Shown here: in pieces, positions 13,849 to 57,698 of the stretch
Numbering within the stretch: the first letter of the stretch is position 1
Layout: each line of letters opens with the position of its first letter
The notes under the pieces: model-generated
The model's database searches: none
What the model saw: only the letters and a program-made list of their open reading frames with translations
What the model was told of the DNA's origin: nothing
Made by a program: the position numbers and the translations under genes
From: an uncultured Bacteroidales bacterium
GTDB lineage: Bacteria > Bacteroidota > Bacteroidia > Bacteroidales > UBA7960
Direction: 5' to 3'
NCBI GenBank assembly: GCA_964477035.1
Contig: CAYZCW010000003.1
Location: 189,231-253,230, forward strand
DNA length: 64,000 nt

Positions 13849-13936
13849 TCGGGTCGGGATTGGGTCCTGGCGCCGCCCGTGAAAAGCGGCCACGCCCGGA
13901 GGGCACAAAATTACATAATCGACGGGAAAGGCCGGT

Positions 13937-14770
13937 TCACAACCAGCCGAACTTGTTCCGGACGTAGGCCTTGACAAGCAGGATCAGCTTGGTGTTGGTC
14001 CCCACCCGGAAGCGTGTTTCCTTCAGGTTCTCCGGTGATTCGGCACGGATCTTCCGGAGCAGCTCCAGGTAATACCGGTAGGCAAGGTACACCCCCATCC
14101 GGACCTCCCTGTTCAGGGTCTGTATGCCCGTAAAGGCCCCCTGGAAGTCATCCCATATCTCCTGCTCAATCCGGTTCTTGCTCTGCAGGTCAAAGTGGTC
14201 AAAATCCACATCGGGGAAATAGACCCTGCCGCGGTCCATGCGGTCAGAGCGCATGTCCCTGAGGAAGTTCACCTTCTGAAAAGCCTCCCCCAGCTTGCGT
14301 GCGGCCGGCAGCAGGCGACGGTACTCCTCGTCCTGGCCGGCATAGAACACCCGGAGGCACATCAGGCCAACGACCTCGGCCGAGCCATAGATGTACTCCT
14401 TGTATTCCTCGAGCGAAAAGGATTTCTTTTCCAGGTCCATCGCCATGCTCTTAAAGAAGGCATGGATCAGCGCGTGGTCGATGCCATACGTGTTCACCAC
14501 CCACTGGTAACTGTGAAGGATGGGATTGGTGCTCATGCCGGAACCGATGGCCTGGAAGGTCTGTTCCCGGAATTCGGACAGCAGCTGCTCCTTGTCCTGC
14601 TGGTGAAAGGTATCCACGATTTCGTCCGCGAAACGGACAAATCCGTAGATCGCGTATATGGCCGGCCGCAGCCTGGGATCGAGCAGGCGCACCCCCATGG
14701 AAAAGGAAGTGCTGTAGTTTTTCGTGGTGATCTCGCTGCACTCAAGTGCATTACGCGTGTACAGGTCCAT
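13937..14770 (-). CDS. crtB: Phytoene synthase
   Basis: YSTSFS, YGFVRFADEIVD, YIYGSAEVVGLMC and FQKVNFLRD, of the Bacteroidetes CrtB type. Confidence 0.92.
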   Translation of the reverse strand: MDLYTRNALECSEITTKNYSTSFSMGVRLLDPRLRPAIYAIYGFVRFADEIVDTFHQQDKEQLLSEFREQTFQAIGSGMSTNPILHSYQWVVNTYGIDHALIHAFFKSMAMDLEKKSFSLEEYKEYIYGSAEVVGLMCLRVFYAGQDEEYRRLLPAARKLGEAFQKVNFLRDMRSDRMDRGRVYFPDVDFDHFDLQSKNRIEQEIWDDFQGAFTGIQTLNREVRMGVYLAYRYYLELLRKIRAESPENLKETRFRVGTNTKLILLVKAYVRNKFGWL

Positions 14771-16238
14771 ATTTGCCCGTGATTCGTTCCACAACCAATT
14801 TTGAACTGATGACCGCCATGGGGAGCCCTGTTCCCGGCACCGTGCTGGCCCCCACGTAAAAGACATTGCCAAACTGTTCGTCCTCATTTTTCGGACGGAA
14901 CCCCCCGATCTGGTTCAGGTCATGCCCCAGTCCGAGGCCGCTTCCCTTGTAAAGATTGAATGCATCCCGCCACTCTACCGGAGTCAGGACCGTGCGGGAG
15001 ATGATGTGCTTTTTGACATCCACCCCGATGCGTTCACTCAGGTCGTTGATGATGTTGTCCGCGATCTCGTCCCGGTCGGACCAATCCGGTTTGAACCGCA
15101 TATCCGGCACCGGGCACAACACGAACAGGCTCTCGCAGCCTTCCGGAGCCGCTTCCGGATCGGATTTCGACACCACATTCACATAATAATAGGGCTGGTC
15201 CAGTTTGATGGAGTTCTTGAATATCTTGCCCGAGTACTCCTCGAAGTTGTTGCCCAGAAAATAGTTGTGCAGCGGGATGCCCTCCAGCTTGGTGTCCAGT
15301 CCGAGGTACATGGTAAACGGTGCCAGGGTCCACTGCATTTTATCCAGTTTCTCCTCCCGGAATTTTTTGCGTCCGAACACCTGGTGCCGGAAATAGGCGG
15401 CATCGGCATTCACCACAAACAGGTCTGCCTCCCACCTTTTGCCGTTTTGGTCCACAAAAGCCTTCAGCTCCTTGCCCTGGTATTCATAGCCGGTCACTTC
15501 GGTGTTGTAATGGACAACGATCCCGGCCTTGTCGATCTCTTTATTCAGCCCCTCCACGATCCGGTACATGCCCCCTTCCACATTGTGGTAGCCGTCATGC
15601 ACCAGCTCGGTATACGACAAAATGGTATAAATGGCCGGGGTATCGAAGGGCGTTGCTCCCAGAAAAAAGGCCACCAGGGAAAAGATCTCCTTGACCTCGC
15701 GCGACTCAAAATGCCGCTCCATTTCCCGCCAGACCGAACGGAACAATTTGGGCGAGTACTTCACAGGCACCCGCAGCAGGGTGAGCAGGTACTGCCAGAC
15801 GGAGTCATAGTTCCTTTTGAGCACCAGGTATTCGGTATCGTGGAAAAAAGCCCCCGCCGAGGCCAGAAAACGGTCCATCTTTTCCCGGAAGTTGGGCTCC
15901 ACCCCTTCAAATTCAAGGGCAAGCTTATCCAGGTCGCGGTGGATCATGAACCTCCGGTCCGACCCCCTGAAGTGCACTGCATACAGGGTCTCCAGCTCCC
16001 GGAAGGCAAAAGGCATCTCCTCCAGACGGGCGTCCTCGAAGAACTCCCTGAACTCATAGGTCATGCTGAAAAAGGTGGGTCCCAGATCGAAGGTAAACCC
16101 GTCTTTTTTCAATTGGTTGAGCCGGCCGCCCGGCTGGTGGTATTTTTCCACCATCTCCACCCGGTATCCCCTCCTGCTCAGGCGCAGCGCCGTGGTCAAA
16201 GCCCCCAGCCCCGTTCCGACGATCAGTACTTTTTTCAT
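14751..16238 (-). CDS. crtI: Phytoene desaturase
   Basis: IVGTGLGA FAD motif, GGRL, FDLGPTFF and C-terminal VGASTVPGTGLPM; overlaps the crtB start. Confidence 0.9.
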   Translation of the reverse strand: MKKVLIVGTGLGALTTALRLSRRGYRVEMVEKYHQPGGRLNQLKKDGFTFDLGPTFFSMTYEFREFFEDARLEEMPFAFRELETLYAVHFRGSDRRFMIHRDLDKLALEFEGVEPNFREKMDRFLASAGAFFHDTEYLVLKRNYDSVWQYLLTLLRVPVKYSPKLFRSVWREMERHFESREVKEIFSLVAFFLGATPFDTPAIYTILSYTELVHDGYHNVEGGMYRIVEGLNKEIDKAGIVVHYNTEVTGYEYQGKELKAFVDQNGKRWEADLFVVNADAAYFRHQVFGRKKFREEKLDKMQWTLAPFTMYLGLDTKLEGIPLHNYFLGNNFEEYSGKIFKNSIKLDQPYYYVNVVSKSDPEAAPEGCESLFVLCPVPDMRFKPDWSDRDEIADNIINDLSERIGVDVKKHIISRTVLTPVEWRDAFNLYKGSGLGLGHDLNQIGGFRPKNEDEQFGNVFYVGASTVPGTGLPMAVISSKLVVERITGKYGPVHA

Positions 16239-16387
16239 GTATACATCCTTTTCACTGGCAAAAAGAATTTTGCTTCTTAAACAAACCGTGGGTGCCGGAA
16301 TCTGCCGCCATGCCCTTTGGGACTGTCTGCCATTGATTTTATTTGTGTTCCCTTTGAACTCCCGGAAAAAATTGCCGTTATTTGAGT

Positions 16388-17887
16388 ATGGAACAATCAA
16401 GTGCCGTTATTGGTTCAGGCATAGGAGGAATTGCTTCGGCCATCCGGTTGGCCGTCAAGGGATACAAGGTAAGTGTTTTTGAGCAAAGCCACGCTCCCGG
16501 AGGCAAACTTTCTCAACTCCGCCTGGGCGGTTTTCGCTTCGACACCGGCCCCTCCCTGTTCACCCTGCCCCAGCTGGTCGATGAACTCTTCCTGCTTTGC
16601 GGGGAGGAGCCGCGTGAACATTTCCGGTATGCCGCCCTGGACACCTCCTGCATTTACTTCTGGGAAGACGGCACGCGCATCCGGGCATGGAAGGACACAG
16701 AGGCCTTCTCGAAAGAGGTGGAGGAGCGGACAGGGGTACCGGAAGAGAAGCTGCGGGGCCATCTTGACAAAAGCCGTGAGCTCTACCGGATCACCGCCGA
16801 TGTGTTCCTGTTCAATTCTTTTCACAAGCCTTCCCGGCTTCTGAGGCCTCCTGCATGGAAGGCCCTGACGGGCCTGCACCGGCTGGATGCGCTGACCACC
16901 ATGCACCGGCGCAACCAGAAGCGGTTCGGACACCCCAAAGTGGTGCAGCTGTTCGACCGTTATGCCACCTATAACGGCAGCAACCCTTACCGCACCCCGG
17001 CCACCCTGAATGTGATCGCCCACCTGGAGCACAACATGGGAGCCTGGTTCCCCGAGAAGGGCATGTATTCCATCGTGGAGTCCCTGGTGGCGCTTGCCCG
17101 CCGGCAGGGAGTGGCATTCATTTTCAACAGTCCGGTCGAAGAAGTGGTTCTTCGCCATGGAAGGGTGGCCGGCCTTCGTGAAGGGGGCAGATTCCATCCC
17201 TTCGACAGGGTGGTGAGCGACATCGACATCGTGCGCCTTTACCGGGACCTGCTGCCCGGAACGGTCCTGCCCAAAAAGCAGACCCGGGGGGAGCGGTCCA
17301 CTTCGGCACTGATCTTTTACTGGGGGGTGGACCGGGATTTCCGGGAACTGGGCCTGCACAACATCTTGTTTTCGAACGACTATGAAAGAGAGTTCCGGCA
17401 CCTTTTCGAAACGAAAACCCTTCCGGACGACCCGACCGTGTATGTGTTCATCAGCTCCAGGCAGGTTCCCGGCGATGCCCCGGCCGGGTGTTCGAACTGG
17501 TATGTCATGATCAATGCTCCGGAGAACGTGGGGCAGGACTGGGACGGACTCATTGACAGGACCCGTACGGATATTCTGGAGAAGATCCGCCGCTGCCTGA
17601 ACATCGACCTCGGACCCCATATTGTGCAGGAGGCGGTGGCCGACCCCAGGACCATCGAACGGGACACCGGCTCCTACCGCGGATCCCTTTACGGTTTGAG
17701 CTCCAACGACCGCTTTGCGGCATTCAACCGGCATGCCAATTTCAGCAGAAAGTTTAAGAACCTGTACTTTGCAGGCGGCAGCGTGCATCCCGGAGGCGGC
17801 ATCCCGCTCTGCCTGGCCTCCGCAAAAATCATCGACCAGGAAATCCCACCCGCCAACCACCAAAAGCCATTAACCAATAACCAATAA
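16388..17887 (+). CDS. crtD: 1-hydroxycarotenoid 3,4-desaturase
   Basis: VIGSGIGG, FDTGPSLFTLP, FDRYATYNGSNP, GSLYGLSSN and GGSVHPGGGIPLCL, characteristic of Bacteroidetes CrtD. Confidence 0.85.
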   Translation: MEQSSAVIGSGIGGIASAIRLAVKGYKVSVFEQSHAPGGKLSQLRLGGFRFDTGPSLFTLPQLVDELFLLCGEEPREHFRYAALDTSCIYFWEDGTRIRAWKDTEAFSKEVEERTGVPEEKLRGHLDKSRELYRITADVFLFNSFHKPSRLLRPPAWKALTGLHRLDALTTMHRRNQKRFGHPKVVQLFDRYATYNGSNPYRTPATLNVIAHLEHNMGAWFPEKGMYSIVESLVALARRQGVAFIFNSPVEEVVLRHGRVAGLREGGRFHPFDRVVSDIDIVRLYRDLLPGTVLPKKQTRGERSTSALIFYWGVDRDFRELGLHNILFSNDYEREFRHLFETKTLPDDPTVYVFISSRQVPGDAPAGCSNWYVMINAPENVGQDWDGLIDRTRTDILEKIRRCLNIDLGPHIVQEAVADPRTIERDTGSYRGSLYGLSSNDRFAAFNRHANFSRKFKNLYFAGGSVHPGGGIPLCLASAKIIDQEIPPANHQKPLTNNQ

Positions 17888-17901
17888 CCAACAGCCAACA
17901 A
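17860..17901 (+). repeat. Six degenerate heptamer units (CCAAYAR)
   Basis: ccaaaag ccattaa ccaataa ccaataa ccaacag ccaacaa; the array contains the crtD TAA stop and ends 3 nt before the cruF ATG. Confidence 0.8.
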
Positions 17902-17904
17902 CCC

Positions 17905-18567
17905 ATGCCCCCCAAAAAACCCATCCTCCCTTCCCCCACCGCCGGAAAGCTGCTGATGCTGTATTACGGAGTGGGCGTGGCCGGATTGACCCACCCGGCG
18001 ACCCGGGACCTGTTCACCGGCCTCATGCCCTGGTCGATCCTGGGCAGCACCCTCCTGCTCCTTTTCTACCACCGGGACTGGACCTGGCGGCAGGTGCTCA
18101 TCCTTTTGGGCACCGCCGTGGCCGGATTCCTGGTCGAAGTGGCCGGGGTGCTCACCGGCCAGGTTTTCGGGGAATATGCCTACGGACCGGCCCTGGGCTG
18201 GCAGGTGCTGGAGACCCCATTGCTCATCGGCGTGAACTGGGCCATGCTGATCTACTGCACCCACACTTTGTTCGAAGGAAGCGGACTTTCCTGGCCCATC
18301 CGGCTGTTTGGCGGCGCCCTGCTGATGGTTGGCTACGATTTCTATATGGAGCCTGTTGCCATCGGGCTGAACATGTGGCAATGGGGAGGCGGGGGCATCC
18401 CCCTGCAGAATTACCTGGCCTGGTTTGTCATTTCCCTGGTCTTTCTCGCCGCCATGCAACTGGGCGGGATCCGCACCGGCAACCGCCTCGCACCCTGGCT
18501 GTTCTGGGTACAGGCTGCCTTTTTCCTTCTCTTAAACTTTGGCCTTCAGGCCGTTGTTCCGAATTAA
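17905..18567 (+). CDS. cruF: Carotenoid 1,2-hydratase (CruF/DUF422 family)
   Basis: Multi-TM protein with EVAGVLTG..FGEYAYG..LG, PLLIGVNW, D..MEPVA and PLQNYLAWF. Confidence 0.85.
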   Translation: MPPKKPILPSPTAGKLLMLYYGVGVAGLTHPATRDLFTGLMPWSILGSTLLLLFYHRDWTWRQVLILLGTAVAGFLVEVAGVLTGQVFGEYAYGPALGWQVLETPLLIGVNWAMLIYCTHTLFEGSGLSWPIRLFGGALLMVGYDFYMEPVAIGLNMWQWGGGGIPLQNYLAWFVISLVFLAAMQLGGIRTGNRLAPWLFWVQAAFFLLLNFGLQAVVPN

Positions 18568-18602
18568 GCGCAAGAATCCGCTGCAGAAAACCCCATCCTT
18601 CC

Positions 18603-19223
18603 ATGATCGAAGCCCGGCACCACCCCCTGTATGAACGCTTCTTCGGCGCCTATACCGGCCTGAAGATGCGGCGCCATTTCAGCTCGTGGGACATTGAAGG
18701 CCGCTTCACGGACGGGGGGAAGGCGGTGTTGCTCGTGGGCAACCATTTCAGCTGGTGGGATGGTTTTATCGGCCAGAAGCTGGCCGACAGGGTGTTTCAC
18801 CGCAAAATCCACGTCATGATGCTGGAGGAGCAATTGTCCGGCCGCCGCTTTCTGAGCCGGTTGGGGGCCTTCTCTATCCGCCCCGGAAGCCGCGACGCCC
18901 TGAATTCCCTCCGTTATGCCACGGAGCTGCTGCAAAACCCCGGGAACCTGCTTCTGCTGTTTCCCCAGGGGCGTTTCGAATCACACCACCAGTTTCCCCT
19001 CCATTTCGAGCGGGGATGGTTTCGCATTGCGCTGGGCGCCCCCCCGGAAACCCACCTGGTTTTCGCCGCCAACCTGACAGATTGGTTCGCCTCTCCCAGA
19101 CCCCGGCTGTTTACCTATCTTCAGCAGCACGAACTCGGGGACTTTGACGATGCCGGCCGGCTGGAGAATGCCTACAATGACTTTTTAGGAAACGCCATCG
19201 GGCAGCAAAACCAACGGATATGA
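18603..19223 (+). CDS. PlsC-like acyltransferase, probable carotenoid glycoside acyltransferase
   Basis: NHFSWWDGF (NHxSxxD) and LFPQG motifs; sits between cruF and the glycosyltransferase gene. Confidence 0.8.
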   Translation: MIEARHHPLYERFFGAYTGLKMRRHFSSWDIEGRFTDGGKAVLLVGNHFSWWDGFIGQKLADRVFHRKIHVMMLEEQLSGRRFLSRLGAFSIRPGSRDALNSLRYATELLQNPGNLLLLFPQGRFESHHQFPLHFERGWFRIALGAPPETHLVFAANLTDWFASPRPRLFTYLQQHELGDFDDAGRLENAYNDFLGNAIGQQNQRI

Positions 19224-21082
19224 TCGTATTGGCCTGGTTCCTGGTTGGATTCCTGCTGCTGCGAATGATGGTGGCAGGGGTCAACCTGCTGTCCCCCACC
19301 CGCCTGCCGAAGGGCGATCCGGGCGACACCCCCCTCGTGTCGGTGCTGATTCCGGCCCGGAATGAACAAGACAGCATCGGCTCCCTGCTTGAAAGCCTGG
19401 CCTCTCATGATTATGAAAACCTGGAGGTTATTGTTTACGACGACCTCTCGGATGACAAAACCGCGGAGGTGGTGGCACAGCATGCCCGTCAGGACCCCCG
19501 CATCCGGCTGATCCGGGGCACGGGGCTGCCCCCGGGCTGGTTGGGAAAAAACCACGCCTGCCACCACCTGGCCATGGAAGCGCAGGGATCCTGGCTGCTG
19601 TTCCTTGATGCCGATGTCACAGCACAACAGGGGCTCATCCGGAATTTGCTTGCCCGTGCCGGCCGTTTCGGCCTTGGGCTGCTCTCCGTCTTCCCTGGTC
19701 AGCGCATGGAAACCCTGGGCGAAAAAGCCGTGGTTCCCCTGATGAACTGGATTTTGGTCAGCATGCTGCCGCTCCCGCTCACCCGCCTGTCCGCCCGCCC
19801 CTCCCTGTCGGCCGCAAACGGGCAGTGCATGCTTTTCCACTCCGGCACCTACCGGCAACATCGTTTTCACGAGCGGGTAAAGGACCAGAAGGTGGAAGAC
19901 ATCCGGATCTTCCGCATGGCAAAAAGGCTGGGCGTTCCTGCGGAAACCCTGCTGGACAACGGGCAAGTCAGTTGCCGCATGTACCGCAGTTTCAGAGAGG
20001 CCATCCAGGGGTTTTCCAAAAATGTATTCGAATTCTTCGGAGGCAGTGCCTGGCTGGCCTGGGGTTTCACCCTGGCGACCGTTCTGGGATTCGTGCCCGT
20101 CTGGCTCGCCATGGGGGCATGGCAGGCCGCTGCCTTCGTGGGCGGCGGGGTGCTGATTCGCCTGCTGTCGGCATGGGCCAGCCGTCAAGCGGCAGGCGGC
20201 GCCCTCCTGCTCGGTCCCCTGCAACAATTTTCCCTGCTGATGGTGGTCAGCGCAGGACTTCTTCAGAGGGTCCGTAAAAGCACGACCTGGAAAGGCAGGC
20301 GGGTCGACCTTCCGAGAAAGGTCGTTAAATCCGCTGTGGTCCTGTTTTTCCTCCTCGTCGGATGGGCAGGCAGCCTCCCCGCCGGGCAACAGGCAAGCCC
20401 GTCCCTGAAAACTTACCAGGACGCCATTTACGAAGCCTATGTGCTGAATCGTATGCCCCAGTGGGTCAGTACGCTGCAGGACATGGAAGCGGCTTACCGG
20501 CGGCAGCCAGGCACGGCCCTGCTTTACGACATCCTGCTGGCCCAGTACGGACTGATCGGGTATTACCTGGGAACGGAAGACAATGCAAGCGGAGGCTCCC
20601 TGCTGGACAAGGCAGAAAAAAACCTGGCAACCCTGGCCCGTGAGCCGGGCTACAAGGCAGCGACACGGGCGTTCGAGGGGGCTTTTCTGGCTTTCCGGAT
20701 CTCCCTTCGTCCCATCCGGGCGGTGCAGCTGGGGCCACGCAGTTACCGCCGCATCGATGAAGCCATCGAGGCGGACCCGGATTATGCCCGGGCCTGGATC
20801 GAAAAGGGCAACGCCGCCTTTTTCACCCCGCCCGTTTTCGGAGGTTCCAAAACCGAAGCGATCGACCATTATACCAAGGCCCTACAACTGCTCGAAGCCC
20901 GCATGCCCAACAACCACCGCTGGCTCTACCTCAGCACCCTGGTGTCCCTTGCCAACGCCTACGAAAAGACGGGAGACCTGCCCCGGGCCATCCGCACCCT
21001 GGAAAAGGCCCTGGCCTTTGAGCCCCGCTTTACCTGGGTAAGGGATGAGATGCTGCCCCGCCTGCGAACCATTCAGCAATAA
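19220..21082 (+). CDS. GT2 carotenoid glycosyltransferase (CruC/CrtQ-like) fused to a C-terminal TPR-like domain
   Basis: VSVLIPARNE, YDDLSDD, GWLGKNHAC, LDAD, ANGQC and EDI motifs ending at WKGR. A hydrophobic helix and helical TPR-like repeats follow in the same frame. Confidence 0.82.
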   Translation: MIVLAWFLVGFLLLRMMVAGVNLLSPTRLPKGDPGDTPLVSVLIPARNEQDSIGSLLESLASHDYENLEVIVYDDLSDDKTAEVVAQHARQDPRIRLIRGTGLPPGWLGKNHACHHLAMEAQGSWLLFLDADVTAQQGLIRNLLARAGRFGLGLLSVFPGQRMETLGEKAVVPLMNWILVSMLPLPLTRLSARPSLSAANGQCMLFHSGTYRQHRFHERVKDQKVEDIRIFRMAKRLGVPAETLLDNGQVSCRMYRSFREAIQGFSKNVFEFFGGSAWLAWGFTLATVLGFVPVWLAMGAWQAAAFVGGGVLIRLLSAWASRQAAGGALLLGPLQQFSLLMVVSAGLLQRVRKSTTWKGRRVDLPRKVVKSAVVLFFLLVGWAGSLPAGQQASPSLKTYQDAIYEAYVLNRMPQWVSTLQDMEAAYRRQPGTALLYDILLAQYGLIGYYLGTEDNASGGSLLDKAEKNLATLAREPGYKAATRAFEGAFLAFRISLRPIRAVQLGPRSYRRIDEAIEADPDYARAWIEKGNAAFFTPPVFGGSKTEAIDHYTKALQLLEARMPNNHRWLYLSTLVSLANAYEKTGDLPRAIRTLEKALAFEPRFTWVRDEMLPRLRTIQQ

Positions 21083-47863: not shown

Positions 47864-48520
47864 ATGCATCCGCCCATCACCCAGGAGGTAACAAACGAAT
47901 TCATGCAATCCCTGCTTTCGGGTGATCGCCGGGAGGGGGCACGCATCATTCAGGACCTGTTGTTTTCGGGTGTCCCGGTCCAGAGAGCCTATGAAGAAGT
48001 GATCAAAAAAGCCCTTTACCATGTCGGGGAATTGTGGGAGCACAACCAGATCACGGTCGCCGAGGAACACCTGGCCACCTCCGTTTCGGAAGCCATCATG
48101 AATGAATTGTTCCCCGCGCTGGTATCCCGTGCCCGGACCAACAGGAAGGTGCTGCTTGGCTGCGTGGAGAACGAATTGCACCAGGTGGGGGTGAAAATGG
48201 TGGCCGATGTGTTTGAAATGAAGGGATGGGACACATTCTTCCTGGGAACCGGCATCCCGGTCCACGAAATGATCCGGTATGCAAAATCCCTCCGGCCCGA
48301 TCTGTTCGCCCTGTCGATTAGCATTTACTTTCATCTGCCCGTGCTGGAAGCCATGATTGGCCAAATCCGGCAAGAATTTCCCGAAACCAACATCCTGGTG
48401 GGCGGGCAGGGCTTCCGGCACGGAGGACGGGAGGTCCTGCAAAACCTGCCCGGGGTCCTGCTTATTGACGACCTCTATTCCCTGGAGCAATATATTGACG
48501 GGCTGGCTGAAACAGGCTGA
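47864..48520 (+). CDS. Stand-alone cobalamin-binding protein with CarH-type motifs and no DNA-binding domain
   Basis: W-x9-EH (WEHNQITVAEEH), E-x-H-x2-G-x41-S-x-S-x26-GG; four-helix cap plus Rossmann domain only. Confidence 0.9.
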   Translation: MHPPITQEVTNEFMQSLLSGDRREGARIIQDLLFSGVPVQRAYEEVIKKALYHVGELWEHNQITVAEEHLATSVSEAIMNELFPALVSRARTNRKVLLGCVENELHQVGVKMVADVFEMKGWDTFFLGTGIPVHEMIRYAKSLRPDLFALSISIYFHLPVLEAMIGQIRQEFPETNILVGGQGFRHGGREVLQNLPGVLLIDDLYSLEQYIDGLAETG

Positions 48521-48546
48521 GCCCTTTGCCCGCAAACTTTAAATCT

Positions 48547-49020
48547 ATGGATAAAAAAACACTGATTGAATCCGCCACCCGGCTGGGGCCGTTTTCCCCC
48601 ACCACGGCAACTGGCTATGCGGACAAAAGCGACCGGCTGATCGCCCGCATCAATGAGGCCCTGCTGTCGCGTGCCGATACAAAATCCATCGTCGGGGACA
48701 TCAACCTGGCCATGATGAAGGACAACCATGCCAACCACGTGCGTTTCATCGCCTCCATCCTGAAGCATTTCGATGCAGAGGTGCTGACCGAAACCGTTTT
48801 ATGGGTTTTCAGGGCCTACCGCAACCGGGGATTTGCTTCCACCTACTGGGCCGCCCAGCTCAGCGCCTGGTTCCCCATCCTGCGGGAGGAGCTGCCCCGG
48901 GAAATTTATGAGGAAGTACGCCCCCTGTACGAATGGATGCAGGTAAACATCCCCCTGTTTGAGAAACTGTCTCACGAACAATCAGAGAACGGAGAATCCC
49001 CATACCAAAACGGTCACTAA
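48547..49020 (+). CDS. 157-aa all-helical globin/phycobiliprotein-like protein
   Basis: Amphipathic helix pattern; by-eye alignment to recalled allophycocyanin helices E-H; no Cys; stop overlaps the next ATG (TAATG). Confidence 0.7.
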   Translation: MDKKTLIESATRLGPFSPTTATGYADKSDRLIARINEALLSRADTKSIVGDINLAMMKDNHANHVRFIASILKHFDAEVLTETVLWVFRAYRNRGFASTYWAAQLSAWFPILREELPREIYEEVRPLYEWMQVNIPLFEKLSHEQSENGESPYQNGH

Positions 49021-50192
49021 TGGAGGACTTGCCCCAAAGGCTGATTCCCTGGATCGGGGAGATCCGGCAGGCGGCCGCAGACAGCAAGGCCCTGTGCATC
49101 GCCCTGTTTTCGACCGGAGACCGCAAGCTGGTCCGGGCGAATGCTGCTGCCGTCCACCTGCTTCGGGGCGGAGGTCCCGAACGGCTGGTCAATCCGACTT
49201 TCGACAAGCTGCTGGAATGCCGGGGAAATGAGCCTGCCTATGAAGGGCTCCTCACCCTGGGCGACAACGAAAGCATGAACACCACCATCCAGGCCAAGGT
49301 ATTTGTCCGCGATGGGGAAATGCTCATCACGGGAGAGGTCGACCTGCCGCGCATCACGGACCTGAATACAAAGATGGCCCGGATCAACCAGGAAAACAAC
49401 AACCTGCAGCGACAGCTCCTGAAGGAGAAAATCCAGGTGGAGCGCATGATGGAGGAGCTCAGGGAGACCAACCGACAACTCGGGTTGCTGAACCTGGAAA
49501 AGAACCGCTTCCTGAGCATGGCGGCCCACGACCTGCGCAACCCCATATCCACGGCCATTTCCTATGTGGACATCCTGCTCAACAGCGGGGGGCTGTTCCC
49601 GGAAGACAAACGAACAGGCTTTCTGCACACCATCGATGAGCGGCTGAAGTTCTCCCTGAAGCTGATGAACGAACTGCTGGACGTCTCCCGGATCGAGACC
49701 CGGAGCATCCGCCTGGAGGTCCGCGAACACAGTTACCGGGACCTGCTCGAACAGACCATCCGGTTCAACCAGCTGGTGGGGCGGTGGAAGGAGATTTCCG
49801 TCGGATTGGCATGCCCGGGTGATCCGCTGGTATTTGCCTTCGACCGGAATAAAATGGAGCAGGTCCTCAACAACCTGATAAGCAACGCCATCAAATATTC
49901 TCCGAAAGGGTCGAAGGTCCGCATTCAGGTGGACAGGGAAAAGGAAGCGGTCCATACCGCCGTCTGCGACCAGGGCGTGGGGATCCGCGAAGATGAACTG
50001 GAAGGCATCTTCGAACCGTTCCGCAAATCCAGTTCCAGGCCGACCGCCGGAGAGAGCAGCACCGGACTCGGCCTGGCCATCACCAAAAAGATCATTGAAG
50101 AACACGGGGGAGGCATCACGGTGGAAAGCAGCCCGGGCAAGGGATCCTGTTTCCGCTTCACCCTTCCTGTTTCAAGGCCTCCGTCCGGCTGA
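49020..50192 (+). CDS. Soluble sensor histidine kinase with an unassigned N-terminal domain and coiled coil
   Basis: H-box AAHDLRNP, N-box NNLISNAIKYS, DQGVGI, and G2 box STGLGLAI; no TM segment. Confidence 0.9.
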   Translation: MEDLPQRLIPWIGEIRQAAADSKALCIALFSTGDRKLVRANAAAVHLLRGGGPERLVNPTFDKLLECRGNEPAYEGLLTLGDNESMNTTIQAKVFVRDGEMLITGEVDLPRITDLNTKMARINQENNNLQRQLLKEKIQVERMMEELRETNRQLGLLNLEKNRFLSMAAHDLRNPISTAISYVDILLNSGGLFPEDKRTGFLHTIDERLKFSLKLMNELLDVSRIETRSIRLEVREHSYRDLLEQTIRFNQLVGRWKEISVGLACPGDPLVFAFDRNKMEQVLNNLISNAIKYSPKGSKVRIQVDREKEAVHTAVCDQGVGIREDELEGIFEPFRKSSSRPTAGESSTGLGLAITKKIIEEHGGGITVESSPGKGSCFRFTLPVSRPPSG

Positions 50193-50219
50193 CCCGAAAG
50201 GGCGTTACGTCTTTTTAAC

Positions 50220-50227
50220 TATATTTG
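50220..50227 (+). promoter_or_regulatory. -7 promoter element before the PAS-PAS-GAF kinase
   Basis: TATATTTG. Confidence 0.55.
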
Positions 50228-50307: not shown

Positions 50308-52737
50308 ATGGCTGCCACTTTTTCGAACGACCCGAACGACAATGCCGCAGAGGAGCAGATCCTGCGTGACAACGAAGCCCTCTACCGCAACCTCTTCGAA
50401 CACGCCAACGATGCCATCACCATCATGGAAGGGGAGCGTTTTATCAACTGCAACAAGAAGGCCGAGGCCCTGTTCGGAGCCCCCAGGGAGCAGATCATCG
50501 GGAAAACGCCCGGGGATTTCTCCCCCCGCCATCAGGCCGACGGAAGCCTTTCCGAAGCGGCCGCCAGGGAAAAGATTGAAGCCGTGCACCAGGGAAAACC
50601 CCAATTCTTCGAGTGGGTGCATCAGACACTGGACGGACAGCCGTTCAATGCGGAGGTCAGCCTGAACCTCAGTCCGGTCAGGGACCGCAAAATCGTGCAG
50701 GCCATCGTCCGGGATGTGAGTTCGCGAAAGGAACACGAAAAGGCACTCAGGGAGTCCCGGCAGATGCTGCGCACGGTGATCGACACGGTACCGGTCCGGG
50801 TTTTCTGGAAGGACCTGGACCTGAAGTACCTGGGGTGCAACAGGCCGTTTGCCGCCGATGCCGGGCTGGGCCATCCCGATGAGGTGGTGGGCCGAACGGA
50901 TTTTGATATGGGCTGGTCCGATCAGGCGGAGCTGTACCGGCAGGACGACCGGGAGGTCATCCAAAGCAGGCAGCCAAAGCTAGACTATGAAGAGGCCCGG
51001 AGCACCCCTGAGGGTAAAAAAATCTGGCTGAAAACCAGCAAGGTTCCCCTGATGGACTCCGGCGGAAAACCCATCGGGGTCTTGGGAACCTATGAGGACA
51101 TCACGGAAAAGAAGCGTGCGGAACAGGTTCAGCGGGTTTTCTACGGGATAGGTAACACCATGATGCACAGCGAAAACATGGAGTCGCTGATCCAAAAGAT
51201 CCGGGAGTTGCTGGAGGGCCTCATAGACGCCCCCAATTTCTACATCGCCCTGTACGACGAGTCGTCGGGCATGCTCTCCATCCCTTACGAAAAAGACGAA
51301 AAAGACTCCATCGACACCTGGCCTGCCCACCGTTCGGCCACGGGGCTGGTGGTGGAGCAAAAGAAATCCCTCTTGCTGAAGAAAGCAGATGTGGAGCGCT
51401 TGCTGAAAGAAGACGTGATCGACCTGATCGGCACCCCCAGCGAGGTATGGCTTGGCGTGCCCCTTTTCAGCAAGGACAAGGTGATCGGGGCCATCGCCCT
51501 GCAAAGCTACACCGACCCCCACGCCTTCGATGAAAACACCATCCAGATCCTGGAGTTTGTCTCCCACCAGATCAGCCTGGCCATCCAGCGCAAGCAGGCA
51601 GAAAAAGACCTGGTTGGCGCCAAGGAACAGGCCGAGCAGAACGACCGGCTGAAGACCGCTTTCCTTAACAACCTGTCCCACGAGATCCGCACTCCCCTGA
51701 ATGCCATCATCGGTTTTTCCGAGTTCCTGAATGAACCCGGGCTCGACCCCGGACGCATTGCCCACCTGACCGACATCATCTGCAAGAGCAGCAACCAGTT
51801 GCTCGGTATCATTGAGGACATTGTGAACATTTCCAAGATCGAAGCCGGGATCATGGAGGCCTGGGAGAAGGAAACGAACCTGAAAGACTTGTTTGCCAGC
51901 GTTTACAACCAACTTCAGATCAGTGCTTCCGAAAAGGGCCTGCGGTTCAGGCACCATCTCGACCTCAATGAAAGCCAGGCCATGGTACGCACCGACGAAA
52001 CCAAGCTGACGCAGGTAATCAGCAACCTGGTCGACAACGCCATCAAATTCACGGACCAGGGCCATGTGGAGTTTGGCTGCACCCTGAAGGACGGGGAGCT
52101 GCGGTTTTATGTGGCGGATACCGGGCCAGGTATCGACCCTTCGTTACATGATAAAATATTCGAGCGCTTTCACCAGGCAGAGACCGGACACGCCCATACG
52201 AAGGGGGGGATGGGACTGGGTCTGCCCATTTCAAAATCGTTCGTCGACCTGCTGGGAGGGAGGATCTGGCTGGAGTCGAAACCAGGTTCCGGTACGGTGT
52301 TCTTTTTCACCTTGCCATGGAAGCCGGCTGCAGGCAAACGGAACGAAGAAACCGGCACGGAAGCCGCCAGTCTGAAGGTAAGGAAAACCATCCTGGTGGC
52401 CGAAGACGAGGAGAACAACTTCGAGCTCGCCCGGGTGATCCTTTCCATACAGGATGTCGCTCTGCTGCATGCCTGGAATGGTCAGGAAGCGGTGGATCTC
52501 TGCCGCGACCACCCGGAGATCGACCTCGTGCTGATGGACATCAAGATGCCGGGGATGAACGGGTACGACGCCACGCGCATCATCAGGGAAATCAGGCCGG
52601 CCCTGCCGGTCATCGCCATGACGGCCTATGCGCTGCCGGGCGACCGGGAGAAGGCACTGCAGGCCGGATGCAATGATTACCTTGCGAAGCCGGTATCGCT
52701 GAAGGAATTCATGACCATGGTAAAGAAACACCTCTAA
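50308..52737 (+). CDS. PAS-PAS-GAF hybrid histidine kinase with C-terminal receiver
   Basis: Two PAS/PAC domains, GAF (WLGVPL, IGAIALQSY), SHEIRTPLNAI, HATPase and REC (VAEDE, MDIKMP, KP). Confidence 0.92.
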   Translation: MAATFSNDPNDNAAEEQILRDNEALYRNLFEHANDAITIMEGERFINCNKKAEALFGAPREQIIGKTPGDFSPRHQADGSLSEAAAREKIEAVHQGKPQFFEWVHQTLDGQPFNAEVSLNLSPVRDRKIVQAIVRDVSSRKEHEKALRESRQMLRTVIDTVPVRVFWKDLDLKYLGCNRPFAADAGLGHPDEVVGRTDFDMGWSDQAELYRQDDREVIQSRQPKLDYEEARSTPEGKKIWLKTSKVPLMDSGGKPIGVLGTYEDITEKKRAEQVQRVFYGIGNTMMHSENMESLIQKIRELLEGLIDAPNFYIALYDESSGMLSIPYEKDEKDSIDTWPAHRSATGLVVEQKKSLLLKKADVERLLKEDVIDLIGTPSEVWLGVPLFSKDKVIGAIALQSYTDPHAFDENTIQILEFVSHQISLAIQRKQAEKDLVGAKEQAEQNDRLKTAFLNNLSHEIRTPLNAIIGFSEFLNEPGLDPGRIAHLTDIICKSSNQLLGIIEDIVNISKIEAGIMEAWEKETNLKDLFASVYNQLQISASEKGLRFRHHLDLNESQAMVRTDETKLTQVISNLVDNAIKFTDQGHVEFGCTLKDGELRFYVADTGPGIDPSLHDKIFERFHQAETGHAHTKGGMGLGLPISKSFVDLLGGRIWLESKPGSGTVFFFTLPWKPAAGKRNEETGTEAASLKVRKTILVAEDEENNFELARVILSIQDVALLHAWNGQEAVDLCRDHPEIDLVLMDIKMPGMNGYDATRIIREIRPALPVIAMTAYALPGDREKALQAGCNDYLAKPVSLKEFMTMVKKHL

Positions 52738-52748
52738 GCCCCCAGCTC

Positions 52749-55250
52749 ATGGCCCGGATCCGTCTGATCATGTTTCTGCTGGCTGCCATTTCCCTGGCCC
52801 CGGAGTGGGTAGCCGCCCGGCAGCCGGGCTACCGTCCCGACATCCCTGACACCATCCTGGTCAAGGGGGACCACTACTACCCTCCCTATGAGTTCATCAA
52901 CGAACAGGGGGCGCCGGATGGTTTCAACGTGGAACTGTTTGAGGCCCTGGCCAGGGACCTGGGGCTCACCTATAAGCTGGAGCTCGGCCCCTGGAGCCAG
53001 GTCCGGGAGGAGCTGGAGGCAGGCCGGATCCATGTCATCATGGGACTGATGTCCTCTCCGGGGCGGGCGGAGAAAATGGATTTCGGCATCCCGCACAGCG
53101 TGATGACCCAGGGCATTTTTGCCCGCAAGGGAGACCATTACGCTTCGCTCGACGACCTCCGGGGCAGGGAGGTGGTGGTTCAGGACAAGGACCTGATGCA
53201 TGACATCCTGCTGGAAACCGGACTGGCAGGCGAGATCATCCCCGTCACGGACCAGCTGGAGGCCCTGATGCTGCTGGAGCAGGGACAGCACGATGCGGCC
53301 ATCCTGGGCAACTTCCAGGGAGCCTACCTGATCCGCCGGCACGGGCTGCGAAACGTGGTACTTCAAACCTCCAACCTCGAACCCCGGAAATACGGCATGG
53401 CCGTGCGCAAGGGGGATGCAGAGCTGCTGGCCCTGCTCAACCTGGGGATTTACCAGCTCAAGGTCAGCGGAGAGTACGACCGCCTCTATACCAAATGGTT
53501 CTCGGTGTATGAAGAAAGGGACTTCTGGAAGGAATATGGCCCCTACCTGTTGATCCTGGGGGTCGTTGTCGCCGGACTGGCCCTGTTTAACCTGCTGCTG
53601 CGCCGGCAGGCGAAACGCATTACAGCAAAACTCCGTGAAAGCGAAAGCCGTTACAGCAATGTGTTTAAGAACAACCATGCGGTGATGCTGCTGGTCGACC
53701 CGGACGACGGGCGCATCGTCGATGCGAACCCCGCCGCGGAAAAGTTCTACGGCTGGCCGCGGGAAGAACTGTTGGAGATGTTCATGCACCAGATCAACAC
53801 CCTGCCCCCCGAGGCAGTCCAGGCCGAAATCAGGAAAGCCAGGGACCAGCAAAAAGACCGCTTCAGGTTCCGGCACCGCCTGGCCGGCGGGGAGGTCCGG
53901 GACGTGGAGGTGTTCAGCGGCAGGATCCCCTTCGGGGGCAAGGCCCTGCTGTACTCCATCGTCAACGATGTGACGGACCAGATCAAGGCGGAGCAAACCA
54001 TCCGGAAACGAACAGAGGAGTTATCCACCCTGCTGTCTGTCAGCCAGGCCCTGGCTGTCACCAACGACCTGGGCCGGGTTTTCCAGACCATCGTGGAGCA
54101 GGCTGTCGGCCTCCTTAAGCTCGAAACCGCGGCGATCTACCTTCTGGAAGAAGACATGCTTTACCTGGGCGCCACCACCCCGGCCCTGCCGCCGGATTTT
54201 CCGGAAAAACTGCGCAAGGCGCCACTGAGAGACCACCCCATGATCGAAAAGACCCTCTCTTCGAAGCAGCCACTCAGGATCTTTGAAATGGTTGATGAGG
54301 TCCTGACAGAAGCCGAGCGGCAGATCCAGCAGGTGCGTGGGATCCGCTCCATGCTCATGGTGCCCCTGGCGGTCGAAAGCCGGGTGGCCGGGGTACTGGT
54401 CGTCGGAACGCAAAAGTCGACAAGGCATTTCTCCGACCATGAAATCACCCTATACCAGACCATTGCGCCCCAGGCGGCCCTGGTGATCGAAAATGCCAGG
54501 CTTTACAAAAAAAGCCTGCTTTATGCCTCTGAACTGGAGGAGCGCGTCAGTCAGCGCACGGCCCAGCTGGAAGCCTCCAACAAGGAGCTGGAAGCCTTCG
54601 CCTATTCGGTATCGCACGACCTGCGTGCACCGCTTCGGGCCATCGACGGGTTTACCCGCATCCTGCTGGAGGACTACCGGGAGGATATGGACCAGGAAGG
54701 ACAAAGGGTCTGCCGGGTCATCACGGAAAACGCACAAAAAATGGGGCAACTGATCGACGACCTCCTGTCGTTTTCCCGCCTGGGCCGGTCCGAACTGCAA
54801 TGGTACGAGATCGACATGGCCAAAATGGCCCACATGGTATTCCACGAGCTGTCGCAGGGGATGGATAAGGGCAGGATCGAATTCCTTACAGACCCCCTCC
54901 CGGTGGTTCAGGGGGACCCCACCATGATGAAACAAGTCTGGAGCAACCTGATCGGCAATGCCCTGAAGTTCACCGCCAGGGAAGCGAAGGCGCGCATCCG
55001 CATCCATGCTCAGGAAAATGACGGTCAGCCTGTTTTTGTCGTAGAGGACAATGGGGTGGGCTTCGACGGGCAGTATGCTGAAAGGATATTCGGTGTCTTC
55101 CAGCGGCTGCACCCGGAGAGGGAGTTCCCGGGAACGGGTGTCGGGCTGGCCATTGTGCAGCGGATCATCCACCGCCACGGGGGAGCAGTCCGCGCGGAAG
55201 GGGAGCCCGGGAAAGGGGCGAAATTCTTTTTCTCCGTCCCGGTCCGATAA
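52749..55250 (+). CDS. SBP_bac_3 periplasmic-PAS-GAF histidine kinase (Cph1-like kinase core)
   Basis: Signal peptide, YYPPYEF, TM helix, PAS, GAF, AYSVSHDLRAPLR, NLIGNALKF and GTGVGLAIV. Confidence 0.92.
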   Translation: MARIRLIMFLLAAISLAPEWVAARQPGYRPDIPDTILVKGDHYYPPYEFINEQGAPDGFNVELFEALARDLGLTYKLELGPWSQVREELEAGRIHVIMGLMSSPGRAEKMDFGIPHSVMTQGIFARKGDHYASLDDLRGREVVVQDKDLMHDILLETGLAGEIIPVTDQLEALMLLEQGQHDAAILGNFQGAYLIRRHGLRNVVLQTSNLEPRKYGMAVRKGDAELLALLNLGIYQLKVSGEYDRLYTKWFSVYEERDFWKEYGPYLLILGVVVAGLALFNLLLRRQAKRITAKLRESESRYSNVFKNNHAVMLLVDPDDGRIVDANPAAEKFYGWPREELLEMFMHQINTLPPEAVQAEIRKARDQQKDRFRFRHRLAGGEVRDVEVFSGRIPFGGKALLYSIVNDVTDQIKAEQTIRKRTEELSTLLSVSQALAVTNDLGRVFQTIVEQAVGLLKLETAAIYLLEEDMLYLGATTPALPPDFPEKLRKAPLRDHPMIEKTLSSKQPLRIFEMVDEVLTEAERQIQQVRGIRSMLMVPLAVESRVAGVLVVGTQKSTRHFSDHEITLYQTIAPQAALVIENARLYKKSLLYASELEERVSQRTAQLEASNKELEAFAYSVSHDLRAPLRAIDGFTRILLEDYREDMDQEGQRVCRVITENAQKMGQLIDDLLSFSRLGRSELQWYEIDMAKMAHMVFHELSQGMDKGRIEFLTDPLPVVQGDPTMMKQVWSNLIGNALKFTAREAKARIRIHAQENDGQPVFVVEDNGVGFDGQYAERIFGVFQRLHPEREFPGTGVGLAIVQRIIHRHGGAVRAEGEPGKGAKFFFSVPVR

Positions 55251-55335
55251 ATATGGTGGTTCAACCACAAATTTTATGTAATTTTCGAACAAATCCGTGA
55301 CCGTGGGTCCCGGAGCGCCCTAATAAACCGATCTC

Positions 55336-55782
55336 ATGGAACAATTCAACCCAGTAGACATCCTGATCGTGGAAGACAACCCGGCCGACTCGGAACTGAT
55401 GATCCGGGCACTTAAAAAGGACCATCTGGCCAATAACATTTTCCTGGCAGAAGACGGGGAGGAGGCCCTCGATTTCATCTTCTGCCGTGGCATTTACCAG
55501 GGGCGGCAAATGACCGCACCCCCCAAGGTGGTGTTCCTGGACCTGAAGCTGCCCAAGAAAAACGGGCTGGAGGTCCTGGAACAGATCAGGGCCCAGGAGT
55601 CCACCCGGAGGATCCCGGTGGTGGTGGTTTCCTCTTCCCGGGAGGATCCCGACATCGAAAAAGCCTATGCCCTGGGAGCCAATGCCTATGTCGTCAAACC
55701 GGTCAATTTCGATGACTTCCTGACCGCCATGCGGCAAACCGGTTTTTTCTGGATGGTCGTGAACGAAGCCCCTTCGCCATGA
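55336..55782 (+). CDS. Single-domain Rcp1-type response regulator
   Basis: ILIVEDNPAD, LDLKLPKKNGLEVL, SSSRE..DIEKAY.LGAN.YVVKP. Confidence 0.92.
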   Translation: MEQFNPVDILIVEDNPADSELMIRALKKDHLANNIFLAEDGEEALDFIFCRGIYQGRQMTAPPKVVFLDLKLPKKNGLEVLEQIRAQESTRRIPVVVVSSSREDPDIEKAYALGANAYVVKPVNFDDFLTAMRQTGFFWMVVNEAPSP

Positions 55783-57698
55783 GTGACATCATAAAGATTC
55801 TGATCGCGGAAGACGTGCCCAGCGATGCCGACCTGGCAAAAAGGGAGATTTCAAAGGCGGTTTCCGCCCCGGTGGAATTCCTGCGCGTGGAGGACCGGGA
55901 AGCCTTCAAGAGGGCGGTCACGGAGTTCACCCCCGATGTCATCGTATCGGACTACCAGATGCCGGCCTTCAATGGCATGGAAGCCTTGAATATCACCCTG
56001 AAACTGGCGCCCCACATCCCGTTCATCATGCATACCGGCTCCATGAACGAAGACTTCGCCGTGGAGTGCATGAAGGCAGGGGCCACCGACTACGTGATCA
56101 AGGAGCACATGAAGAGGCTGGGGCCGGCTGTGTTAAGAGCACTGGATATCAAAACGATACGCGCAGACAGCCAGCAGGCGCAAAGGAAGCTGGCCGAGAG
56201 TGAACAACGATTCAGGAGGCTGGCCGACAATGCCGATGACCTTATCTACCGCATCGAACTCTTTCCCGAAAGACGGTTTTCTTATGTGAGCCCTTCCTCG
56301 GTAAGGGTCACCGGATACACCCCGGAGGAGCACTATCTGGATCCGGACCTGAGCCTCAAGCTGGTGCACCCGGACGACCGGGATCTCCTGAAGCCCGGAC
56401 CCACGGAAGAGGCCATACGCCGGCCGGTCATCCTTCGCTGGATCAGGAAAAATGGGACGGTGGTATGGACCGAGCAAAGGAATGTGCCGGTCTACGATGC
56501 CGATGGCCGGCTGGTTGCCCTGGAAGGCATCGCCCGCGACATCACCGAGCGCAAACAGGCCGAGGAGGAGCTCAAGGCCGCCAAGGAAAAAGCCGAGGAA
56601 AGCGACCGCCTCAAAACCGCCTTTCTGAACAACCTGTCGCACGAGATACGGACCCCCCTGAACGCCATCGTGGGGTTTTCCGAGTTCCTGAACGAACCGG
56701 GCCTGGACCAGGACCAGATCCGACGGTTCACGGCCACCATCCGGAGCAGCAGCGACCAATTGCTGTCCATCATCGACGACATTGTCAACATCTCCAAAAT
56801 TGAAGCCGGGCTGCTGGACCGTTTCGAAAATGAATGCCACATCAACAAGTTGCTGGAAAAGGTCTACGGAAAGCTGCAGGTCAAGGCCGCCGAAAAGCTC
56901 ATCAAGTTCCGTTACCATTCCGCCCTCAGCGAAAAGGAAAGCCGGGTCATCACCGACCAGAACAAGCTGGAAACGATCCTTATGCATCTGATCGGCAATG
57001 CCATCAAATTCACCCGTGAGGGACATGTGGAATTTGGCTGCTCCCTGAAGGACAATGCCCTGCGTTTCTATGTCGCCGATACCGGGAGCGGGATCGACCC
57101 GGCCCTGCAGGACACCGTGTTCCAGCGGTTTCAACAGGTCCATACAGACCGGACCTCGGTCAGCAGCGGCATGGGCCTGGGCCTGCCGATCGCCAAATCG
57201 TTCGTGGAATTGCTGGGGGGACGGATCTGGCTGGAGTCCAATCCGGGAACCGGTACAGTGGCTTTCTTCACCATCGAATGGAGCCCGTTGGAGCAATCCG
57301 GCCAGCCGGTTGCAAAACCCGGGCAGGATAATGGAAACGGCAAGCACACCATCCTGGTGGCCGAGGATGAGGAGAACAATTTTGAACTGCTGAAGGTGAT
57401 CCTGGAATCGGTCGACATGGAGATCCTCCATGCCTGGGACGGCAAACAAGCCCTGGAATTGCTGGGGAAACACCCGGAAGTGGATCTGGTGCTGATGGAC
57501 ATCAAGATGCCCGTCATGGGCGGGTACGAAGCCACGCAACGCATCAAGGAGGAGCGGCCGGAGCTGCCGGTGGTGGCCCTGACGGCCTATGCGCTGCCGG
57601 GCGACCGGGAGAAGGCACTCTCGGCAGGCTGTGACGACTACATGGCCAAGCCGGTTTCCCTGAAGGAGTTCCTGAGCATCGTCAAGAAGCACCTCTGA
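55779..57698 (+). CDS. REC-PAS-histidine kinase-REC hybrid
   Basis: N-terminal REC (SDYQMP), PAS (YVSPS, HPDD), SHEIRTPLNAI, HATPase and C-terminal REC. Confidence 0.92.
   Translation: MSDIIKILIAEDVPSDADLAKREISKAVSAPVEFLRVEDREAFKRAVTEFTPDVIVSDYQMPAFNGMEALNITLKLAPHIPFIMHTGSMNEDFAVECMKAGATDYVIKEHMKRLGPAVLRALDIKTIRADSQQAQRKLAESEQRFRRLADNADDLIYRIELFPERRFSYVSPSSVRVTGYTPEEHYLDPDLSLKLVHPDDRDLLKPGPTEEAIRRPVILRWIRKNGTVVWTEQRNVPVYDADGRLVALEGIARDITERKQAEEELKAAKEKAEESDRLKTAFLNNLSHEIRTPLNAIVGFSEFLNEPGLDQDQIRRFTATIRSSSDQLLSIIDDIVNISKIEAGLLDRFENECHINKLLEKVYGKLQVKAAEKLIKFRYHSALSEKESRVITDQNKLETILMHLIGNAIKFTREGHVEFGCSLKDNALRFYVADTGSGIDPALQDTVFQRFQQVHTDRTSVSSGMGLGLPIAKSFVELLGGRIWLESNPGTGTVAFFTIEWSPLEQSGQPVAKPGQDNGNGKHTILVAEDEENNFELLKVILESVDMEILHAWDGKQALELLGKHPEVDLVLMDIKMPVMGGYEATQRIKEERPELPVVALTAYALPGDREKALSAGCDDYMAKPVSLKEFLSIVKKHL

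Follow-up and report, generated by a model that had tools for sequence, protein, structure and literature searches.

The closest systems described so far pair a cobalamin-binding module with a globin related to the phycobiliproteins. In a purely computational study of 5975 sequences, Schneider et al. (2021; PMC8717448) found that standalone photoglobins are almost always encoded beside genes for B12-binding_2/B12-binding proteins, and that photoglobin loci are associated with two-component kinases; the taxa named in its text are actinobacteria, firmicutes, proteobacteria, chloroflexi and archaea, and Bacteroidota are not among them. Clusters of three genes, in which a standalone globin (BBAG-2) accompanies a bilin reductase and a B12-binding protein, were described by Rockwell et al. 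(2023; PMC10151467). BBAG-2 binds biliverdin, is photoinert and is the only split form with bench data; haem oxygenase was present in all genomes with myxobacterial globin-B12 pairs. Zhang et al. (2024; PMC10979010) solved the structures of the fused photocobilins SasPcob and AbDPcob/AbPcob (8J2W, 8J2X and 8J2Y) and showed that standalone photocobilins can control a partner enzyme in trans; among the traits that mark a photocobilin are binding of both AdoCbl and biliverdin and a quaternary state that changes with light. The texts of the last two papers likewise make no mention of Bacteroidota.

Here we analyse a cassette of three genes, A, B and C, located in a stretch of 64,000 nucleotides (hereafter the window) from an uncultured Bacteroidales bacterium (GenBank assembly GCA_964477035.1, contig CAYZCW010000003.1, positions 189,231 to 253,230). 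The genes encode a CarH-type cobalamin-binding protein, a globin and a histidine kinase, respectively (Table 1), and we file the locus under the photoglobin/B12-binding bundle class of Schneider et al. (PMC8717448), in its split form. Comparisons of sequences and predicted structures lead us to propose, with a probability of about one half, that the products of A and B form a two-protein cobalamin sensor, a split photoglobin/B12 'bundle', that would control the autophosphorylation of C. Operons of exactly this kind had already been predicted in the literature of 2021-2023. An earlier note on this DNA, made from the sequence alone, knew of no characterised split, kinase-coupled version and of none in Bacteroidales; its claim to novelty is not sustained, since the class had been predicted computationally (PMC8717448) and BBAG-2 had been partly characterised (PMC10151467). 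A limited literature search returned no bench-characterised B12-dependent histidine kinase or split photocobilin.

The last A of the TAA stop codon of B (49018-49020) is shared with the ATG of C ('cacTAATGgag'), and the starts of A, B and C are identical in the gene calls of the public assemblies of the same organism. Neighbours of B include the kinase and an amylase-like gene, with no bilin reductase gene adjoining. The map of open reading frames (ORFs) and the junction sequences agree with the layout given in the earlier note, namely three co-oriented, packed genes with a 26-nt gap and a TAATG overlap, and with its view that the two sensor halves are separate polypeptides. Its descriptions of A as a CarH-type cobalamin-binding protein with no output domain, of B as a globin/allophycocyanin-like protein and of C as a soluble histidine kinase are likewise upheld by the analyses below, in the case of B at the level of the fold, and the conserved three-gene synteny that it proposed as a check was found.

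The linkage of the three genes is not due to chance, because many genomes contain the cassette amid differing flanks. All ten B homologues that were looked up (55-100% identity to B) are situated in an A-B-kinase cassette, in which the genes usually overlap or nearly abut; in relatives, the overlap between A and B amounts to 8 nt. Across 15 loci, including one with a fused gene, both the B12-binding_2 domain and the B12-binding domain are adjacent to, or fused with, the globin in every case, and a HisKA kinase is adjacent in 14, the exception being that of genome G298. The arrangement itself varies. The genes run A-B-kinase in G173 but A-kinase-B, with the same three families, in G138 (locus L094) and G238 (L095), and in G320 a fused globin-B12 gene adjoins a kinase. 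From this variation, together with the case of G298, we regard A-B as the invariant core of the cassette and the kinase as a usual but not obligatory partner. Of 401 genomes of the phylum that were scanned in six frames, only six contain the B domain, whose distribution is therefore patchy. The two-component link, the position of a standalone globin next to a B12 gene and the existence of fusions in either domain order are all shared with the bundles of Schneider et al. (PMC8717448). The BBAG-2 clusters also have a standalone globin encoded beside a standalone B12-binding protein, but no kinase coupling has been described for them (PMC10151467), whereas a kinase adjoins the pair here.

Individual loci show further peculiarities. 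In the G298 variant (L093, 807-2752, minus strand) the B12 protein is extended at its N terminus by a zinc-ribbon-like CxxC...CxxC segment. In each of two metagenome contigs a gene of the cassette is broken into two ORFs, namely the kinase gene in L099 (5466-6643) and the B12 protein gene in L101 (4126-4790); assembly errors, frameshifts or decay may be responsible.

That A and B work together as a unit is most strongly supported by naturally occurring proteins in which the B domain is fused to a B12 module; on the Rosetta-stone principle, these point to a functional pair. When 1.84 billion representative proteins were searched exhaustively, 462 relatives of B were returned. Among the best 150 of these 462, which were inspected, 22 are proteins of approximately 360-400 amino acids (aa) with an N-terminal B domain, and all seven of the 22 that were scanned with Pfam have a B12-binding_2 domain and a B12-binding domain C-terminal to it. 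Comparison by hhalign of the standalone B family with the N-terminal domains of the 22 fusions gave a probability of 100% (E 2e-54, 153 columns). Judged by this profile match, B and the N-terminal part of the globin-B12 fusions found elsewhere are evidently one and the same domain.

The product of A contains a B12-binding_2 domain (PF02607, E 1.2e-13) and a B12-binding domain (PF02310, E 1.6e-17) and nothing else detectable with Pfam, including no MerR DNA-binding domain; that is, its architecture is a four-helix cap followed by a Rossmann domain, without an output domain. The top NCBIfam model is CarH, with a score far below the cut-off of that model because A has no DNA-binding half. Among PDB sequences the best matches are the photocobilin entries 8j2w/8j2x (E 3e-24), and 8j2y is also matched; photocobilin outscores both CarH (about 4e-10) and the methyl-carrier corrinoid proteins, and is thus the nearest solved relative of A. 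In an alignment of 36 family members (43-62% identity to A), G55xxW58, E68-H69 (forming Wx9EH with the Trp), E104xH106xxG109 and G128 are invariant, and P132 is nearly so. The conserved residues and the relationship to solved structures predict with confidence that A carries an AdoCbl (adenosylcobalamin) site of the CarH/photocobilin type, with the Trp and the Glu-His pair over the adenosyl group and H106 as the lower cobalt ligand. Four motifs of 'light-responsive' cobalamin-binding domains (CBDs) have been defined (PMC11796333), and the SignatureFinder motifs GxxW, EH and GxxxP, three of the four, are present in A.

The photocobilins and the A-B pair share this CarH-type module (Trp, Glu-His and lower His) and its pairing with a phycobiliprotein-like globin, which in photocobilins is part of the same chain but here is a separate gene product. 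The CarH/LitR regulators (TtCarH, PDB 5C8A-5C8F) have the Wx9EH and ExHxxG pocket motifs and the two-domain fold in common with A, but they possess a MerR DNA-binding domain, which A does not. In CarH, His132 becomes the upper ligand in the light state. A His follows the Trp in CarH, whereas the residue following the Trp of A is Glu.

The product of B has no match in Pfam or NCBIfam, and a Pfam scan of 76 family members gave no consistent family. PF00502 (Phycobilisome) is absent from B, and only one of the 76 members matches it, weakly (E 0.012). Searches of PDB sequences, with B by phmmer and with the B-family profile by hmmsearch, returned nothing meaningful and no PDB chain. However, the AlphaFold2 model of B is all-helical, with a confidence (predicted local distance difference test, pLDDT) of 89.5, and Foldseek places alpha and beta subunits of allophycocyanin at the top of its PDB matches (E 0.013-0.1, template modelling (TM) score about 0.62, probability 1.00; best match 6kgx_AH, E 0.013, TM 0.62), followed by smURFP and the globins of globin-coupled sensors. 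The photocobilin 8j2w is absent among the 50 matches listed, and we claim no direct structural match to it. Homologues of B form 828 clusters at 90% identity, nearly all of them 'hypothetical proteins' of 144-165 aa in Bacteroidales-type metagenome-assembled genomes (MAGs).

Column conservation among the 76 diverse members shows that N53, M57, N60, N63, W86, Y91, G95, F96, Y100 and W101 are kept in about 80% or more (N60 in 69 and W86 in 73 of the 76), H61 and H64 in about 70-74%, and D59 in only 40 (53%), with Met or Leu at the -3 position. B thus displays a conserved M-x-D-N-H-x-N-H helix and an aromatic core composed of W86, Y91, Y100 and W101, and it contains no cysteine. We rejected the possibility that B is a haem globin: as read from the sequence, no His is located on the would-be proximal haem helix (residues 77-94), and H61 and H64 are kept only at the frequencies just given. 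With the photoglobins of Schneider et al. (PMC8717448), B shares the non-haem, phycocyanin-related globin fold, but in place of their Cys/Ser/Thr-x-x-Asp signature it has Met-x-x-Asp, with an Asp of limited conservation, and the D-N-H-x-N-H helix. In the photoglobins that Asp is placed on helix 3 and a hydrophobic residue on helix 4; the nearly invariant positions of the B family are N60, N63, W86 and Y91. BBAG-2 has the Cys motif RGMC and is accompanied by a pre-PcyA reductase and/or haem oxygenase (PMC10151467), whereas B lacks cysteine and an adjoining reductase gene, and its genome encodes no haem oxygenase. Light-harvesting phycobiliproteins are recognised by PF00502 and have a bilin-attaching Cys; B has neither. 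On predicted fold and gene architecture, we assign B to the broad photoglobin-type class, in which it forms a distinct clade.

In the product of C, Pfam recognises HisKA (PF00512, E 2.7e-11) and HATPase_c (PF02518, E 2.9e-29), and no Pfam family in residues 1-160. H170, N289, D317xGxG and G349xG351, which represent the H-box His and the N, G1 and G2 boxes of HATPase_c, are invariant in ten cassette kinases, from which C is confidently predicted to be a catalytically complete HisKA kinase. The maximum Kyte-Doolittle mean over 19 residues is 1.05; thus C lacks a transmembrane segment and is soluble. The AlphaFold2 model begins with an N-cap helix, followed by a PAS-like domain of five strands and helix at approximately residues 22-108 (pLDDT 80-90 over residues 10-110), and a continuous signalling helix (109-188) then runs into the DHp domain. 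Only two proteins were retrieved when the N-terminal 150 residues were used in a word-indexed search, the domain being too divergent for this approach, and the orthologues were therefore gathered from the cassette loci. W11, N58-P59, G76, T79, G81, N87 and G105 are common to the input domains of cassette kinases from different genomes. Both the model and this conservation indicate that a family-specific PAS-like domain is the sole input module of C. Photocobilin output is a fused diguanylate cyclase, in contrast to the dedicated PAS-HisKA kinase found here, in carrier genomes without haem oxygenase.

In the mechanism that we propose, A would bind AdoCbl supplied by the PduO-type adenosyltransferase of the cell. 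An adenosyltransferase of this type (PF01923) is encoded in all six carrier genomes, so AdoCbl can be made, and a cobalamin riboswitch is present in the genome from which the window was taken. B would dock on the Rossmann and cap domains of A, giving a photocobilin-like heteromer, and loss of the adenosyl ligand would remodel the four-helix cap together with the oligomeric state. Light from the ultraviolet (UV) to the green would be the most probable trigger of this loss, by cleavage of the Co-C bond, which is photolabile in a CarH-type site. The A-B complex would then bind or release the PAS domain of C and thereby switch the phosphorylation of a response regulator encoded elsewhere. Candidate receivers are the lone REC protein and the REC domains of the gene array downstream of the cassette (Table 1), a link that is speculative because the array is not conserved with the cassette. 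The globin of this lineage would most likely be a structural or allosteric partner and not a biliverdin antenna. In the H-NOX/HnoK and NosP/NahK systems, a small cofactor sensor encoded beside a cytoplasmic kinase regulates autophosphorylation by protein contact. The working principle proposed here would be alike, whereas neither the folds nor the cofactors are related (haem and NO in those systems, cobalamin and a globin partner in this one).

Several points weigh against this proposal. The fourth light-CBD motif, GxxH, is NxxH in A and is variable across the 36 members. The public runs in which the locus occurs are all sludge metagenomes, and the named homologues come from Bacteroidales of groundwater, sediment and digesters. 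No cognate response regulator is identifiable for C, and the A-B pair of G298 lacks a neighbouring kinase gene, its globin gene being followed by that of a 194-aa multi-pass membrane protein. The contacts between A and B, and between the A-B pair and the kinase, are inferred entirely from gene fusion and synteny, and the literature searched contains no bench work on a split, kinase-coupled version.

The habitats just mentioned bear on a second explanation, that the A-B pair senses without light, reporting in the dark how much corrinoid is available, which upper ligand is bound or what the redox state is, so that its light sensitivity would be a chemical side effect. Comparable reporting of B12 status is performed by regulators of the AerR/PpaA type, and the cassette is widespread in anaerobic Bacteroidales of mostly dark habitats (MAGs from sludge and groundwater). 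Furthermore, the carrier genomes contain no bilin source, and the genome of the window uses B12, as judged by its riboswitch and adenosyltransferase. However, the invariant Wx9EH pocket is a hallmark of light-responsive CBDs rather than of generic B12 binders (PMC11796333), a CarH-type site loaded with AdoCbl is inevitably photolabile, and a CarH/LitR-type regulator and carotenoid genes exist in the same genome. We consider sensing in the dark conceivable but doubtful.

A photoreceptor with two chromophores, as the bilin and red-light half of the earlier note implied, would have A with AdoCbl absorbing from the UV to the green and B with a bilin absorbing red/far-red light, the bilin being optically coupled to the corrin as in SasPcob, and the kinase would integrate the visible spectrum. 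The bilin-binding allophycocyanins and smURFP are the nearest folds to that of B, and standalone BBAG-2 globins beside B12 proteins bind biliverdin (PMC10151467). A comparison with SasPcob itself was made through 80 actinobacterial relatives, obtained by means of their B12 part, of which 74 C-terminal domains were compared with the B family. The hhalign match is weak (probability 17%, P 0.0015), and it is weaker still for the fused subgroup. In the register of this weak alignment, W86 falls on Trp296 of SasPcob, which touches both biliverdin and the corrin, and N60 falls on Asp270, the key biliverdin ligand, with D59 one residue before (PMC10979010). At this level the globin of SasPcob is only remotely related to B, if at all, and homology of B to the biliverdin-binding domain is not demonstrated by these sequence comparisons; the B-family profile, as noted above, finds no PDB sequence.

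The residues of B and the gene contents of its hosts also speak against two chromophores. B has no Cys, D59 is present in little more than half of the family, and the distal position is Met. Haem oxygenase (PF01126) was found in none of the six carrier genomes, whereas control genomes were positive, and all matches to HutW (anaerobic haem cleavage) in the carrier genomes are far sub-threshold and HemN-like. This absence of haem oxygenase, unlike the situation in the myxobacterial genomes with globin-B12 pairs, argues against endogenous biliverdin as the ligand of B. AbPcob, moreover, shows that such globins persist with poor biliverdin binding (PMC10979010). A bilin antenna in this locus is thus unlikely, and that half of the earlier interpretation is not supported.

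The globin of the Bacteroidota type, which has no Cys but a D-N-H-x-N-H helix and occurs in genomes that lack haem oxygenase, might instead represent a bilin-free branch of the photoglobins. A-B would then provide the input to a naturally occurring two-component system, gated by cobalamin, in anaerobes, and would report corrinoid status or the state of the adenosyl group with or without light. As a complete statement we hold this to be rather improbable, and offer it tentatively. A globin of such a branch may either clamp the edge of the corrin or supply in trans a histidine or another tetrapyrrole site.

That A is a corrinoid methyl carrier of the MtbC/MtaC type, with incidental kinase adjacency, was suggested by weak NCBIfam matches to MtgC, MtbC and MtaC and by JGI names such as 'methanogenic corrinoid protein MtbC1', but was rejected as very improbable, since these matches are far under their cut-offs with CarH scoring best, no methyltransferase gene adjoins the cassette in any context examined, the link to globin and kinase is conserved and the photoreceptor-type Wx9EH motif is invariant.

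Table 1. Coordinates of the cassette and of other features discussed in the text. Positions are those of the window unless a contig is given.
Feature	Position	Strand	Size or remark	Basis
Gene A, standalone CarH-type cobalamin-binding protein	47864..48520	+	218 aa	ORF map, Pfam PF02607/PF02310
A-B spacer	48521-48546		26 nt	junction sequence
Gene B, standalone Cys-free globin, photoglobin-type	48547..49020	+	157 aa	ORF map, AlphaFold2/Foldseek
Gene C, soluble histidine kinase	49020..50192	+	390 aa	ORF map, Pfam HisKA/HATPase_c
Terminator-like hairpin	50196..50216	+	directly 3' of kinase stop	consensus scan alone
TATATTTG, fits -7 box TAnnTTTG	50220..50227	+	80 nt upstream of next gene	pattern search
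PAS-PAS-GAF-HisKA-HATPase_c-REC hybrid kinase	50308..52737	+		Pfam
SBP_bac_3-PAS-GAF-kinase	52749-55250	+		Pfam
Lone REC	55336-55782	+	148 aa	Pfam
REC-PAS-kinase-REC	55779-57698	+		Pfam
Carotenoid cluster	12946-21082		27 kb upstream of cassette	Pfam
CarH/LitR-type regulator (MerR helix-turn-helix + B12-binding_2)	own genome, contig C12:55235-56185	-	VLWQIGTINPAQEH, GELH, GQSLP
ECF-sigma-like (extracytoplasmic function) gene	C12:54320-54850	-	177 aa; after CarH/LitR-type gene, same strand

The host is plausibly light-responsive despite its habitat, because its genome contains the CarH/LitR-type regulator and the carotenoid cluster listed in Table 1. The regulator, a MerR-B12 protein, carries all four light-CBD motifs. 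By analogy, the regulator and the ECF-sigma-like gene next to it resemble LitR-LitS, the regulators of light-induced carotenoid synthesis. The carotenoid cluster comprises ispH (LYTB), phytoene synthase (crtB) and two phytoene-desaturase-type oxidases (crtI and crtD-like), and further Caroten_synth (CruF-type), an acyltransferase and a GT2-TPR protein. The phytoene/squalene synthase family SQS_PSY was considered as a marker of pigmentation for a test of association between the cassette and carotenoids, but was useless for this purpose, since 385 of the 401 genomes of the phylum have the family, which is far more general than expected.

The consensus scan gave five terminator-like sites in the region, compared with 3.5 expected. 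TATATTTG fits TAnnTTTG, which we take to be the consensus of the Bacteroidota -7 promoter box; this pattern has 18 matches in the window compared with 13 expected, so that the match alone is not significant, although its position is suggestive. The hairpin and the -7 box suggest that A-B-C may form a transcription unit of their own, but only weakly, because both kinds of match are near chance frequency.

The four signalling genes that follow the cassette (50308-57698) include no DNA-binding response regulator, and may constitute a multi-kinase relay or relay partners of C. In L005 and L100, too, the cassette is succeeded by a large PAS/GAF hybrid kinase of similar type, but most other contexts lack one, so that the hybrid kinase does not belong to the constant components of the cassette. 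In two unrelated contexts, a gene of the nitronate monooxygenase family (PF03060) and genes for cold-shock-domain proteins are located within 1-2 kb of the cassette (L001, 8045-9127; L003, 4029-5114), a proximity that may be coincidence.

The cassette is compact, with three soluble proteins and no membrane parts, and, to judge from the 828 globin clusters, it is very common. These properties make it well suited to studies of how a photoreceptor module based on cobalamin communicates with a kinase. Its distinctive twist is a Cys-free D-N-H-x-N-H globin in genomes without haem oxygenase, and the question that it poses, what role a phycobiliprotein-like globin has in hosts that are apparently unable to make biliverdin, is sharper here than with the fused actinobacterial proteins. 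If the system works as proposed, a green-light- or B12-gated kinase would be added to the optogenetic toolbox.

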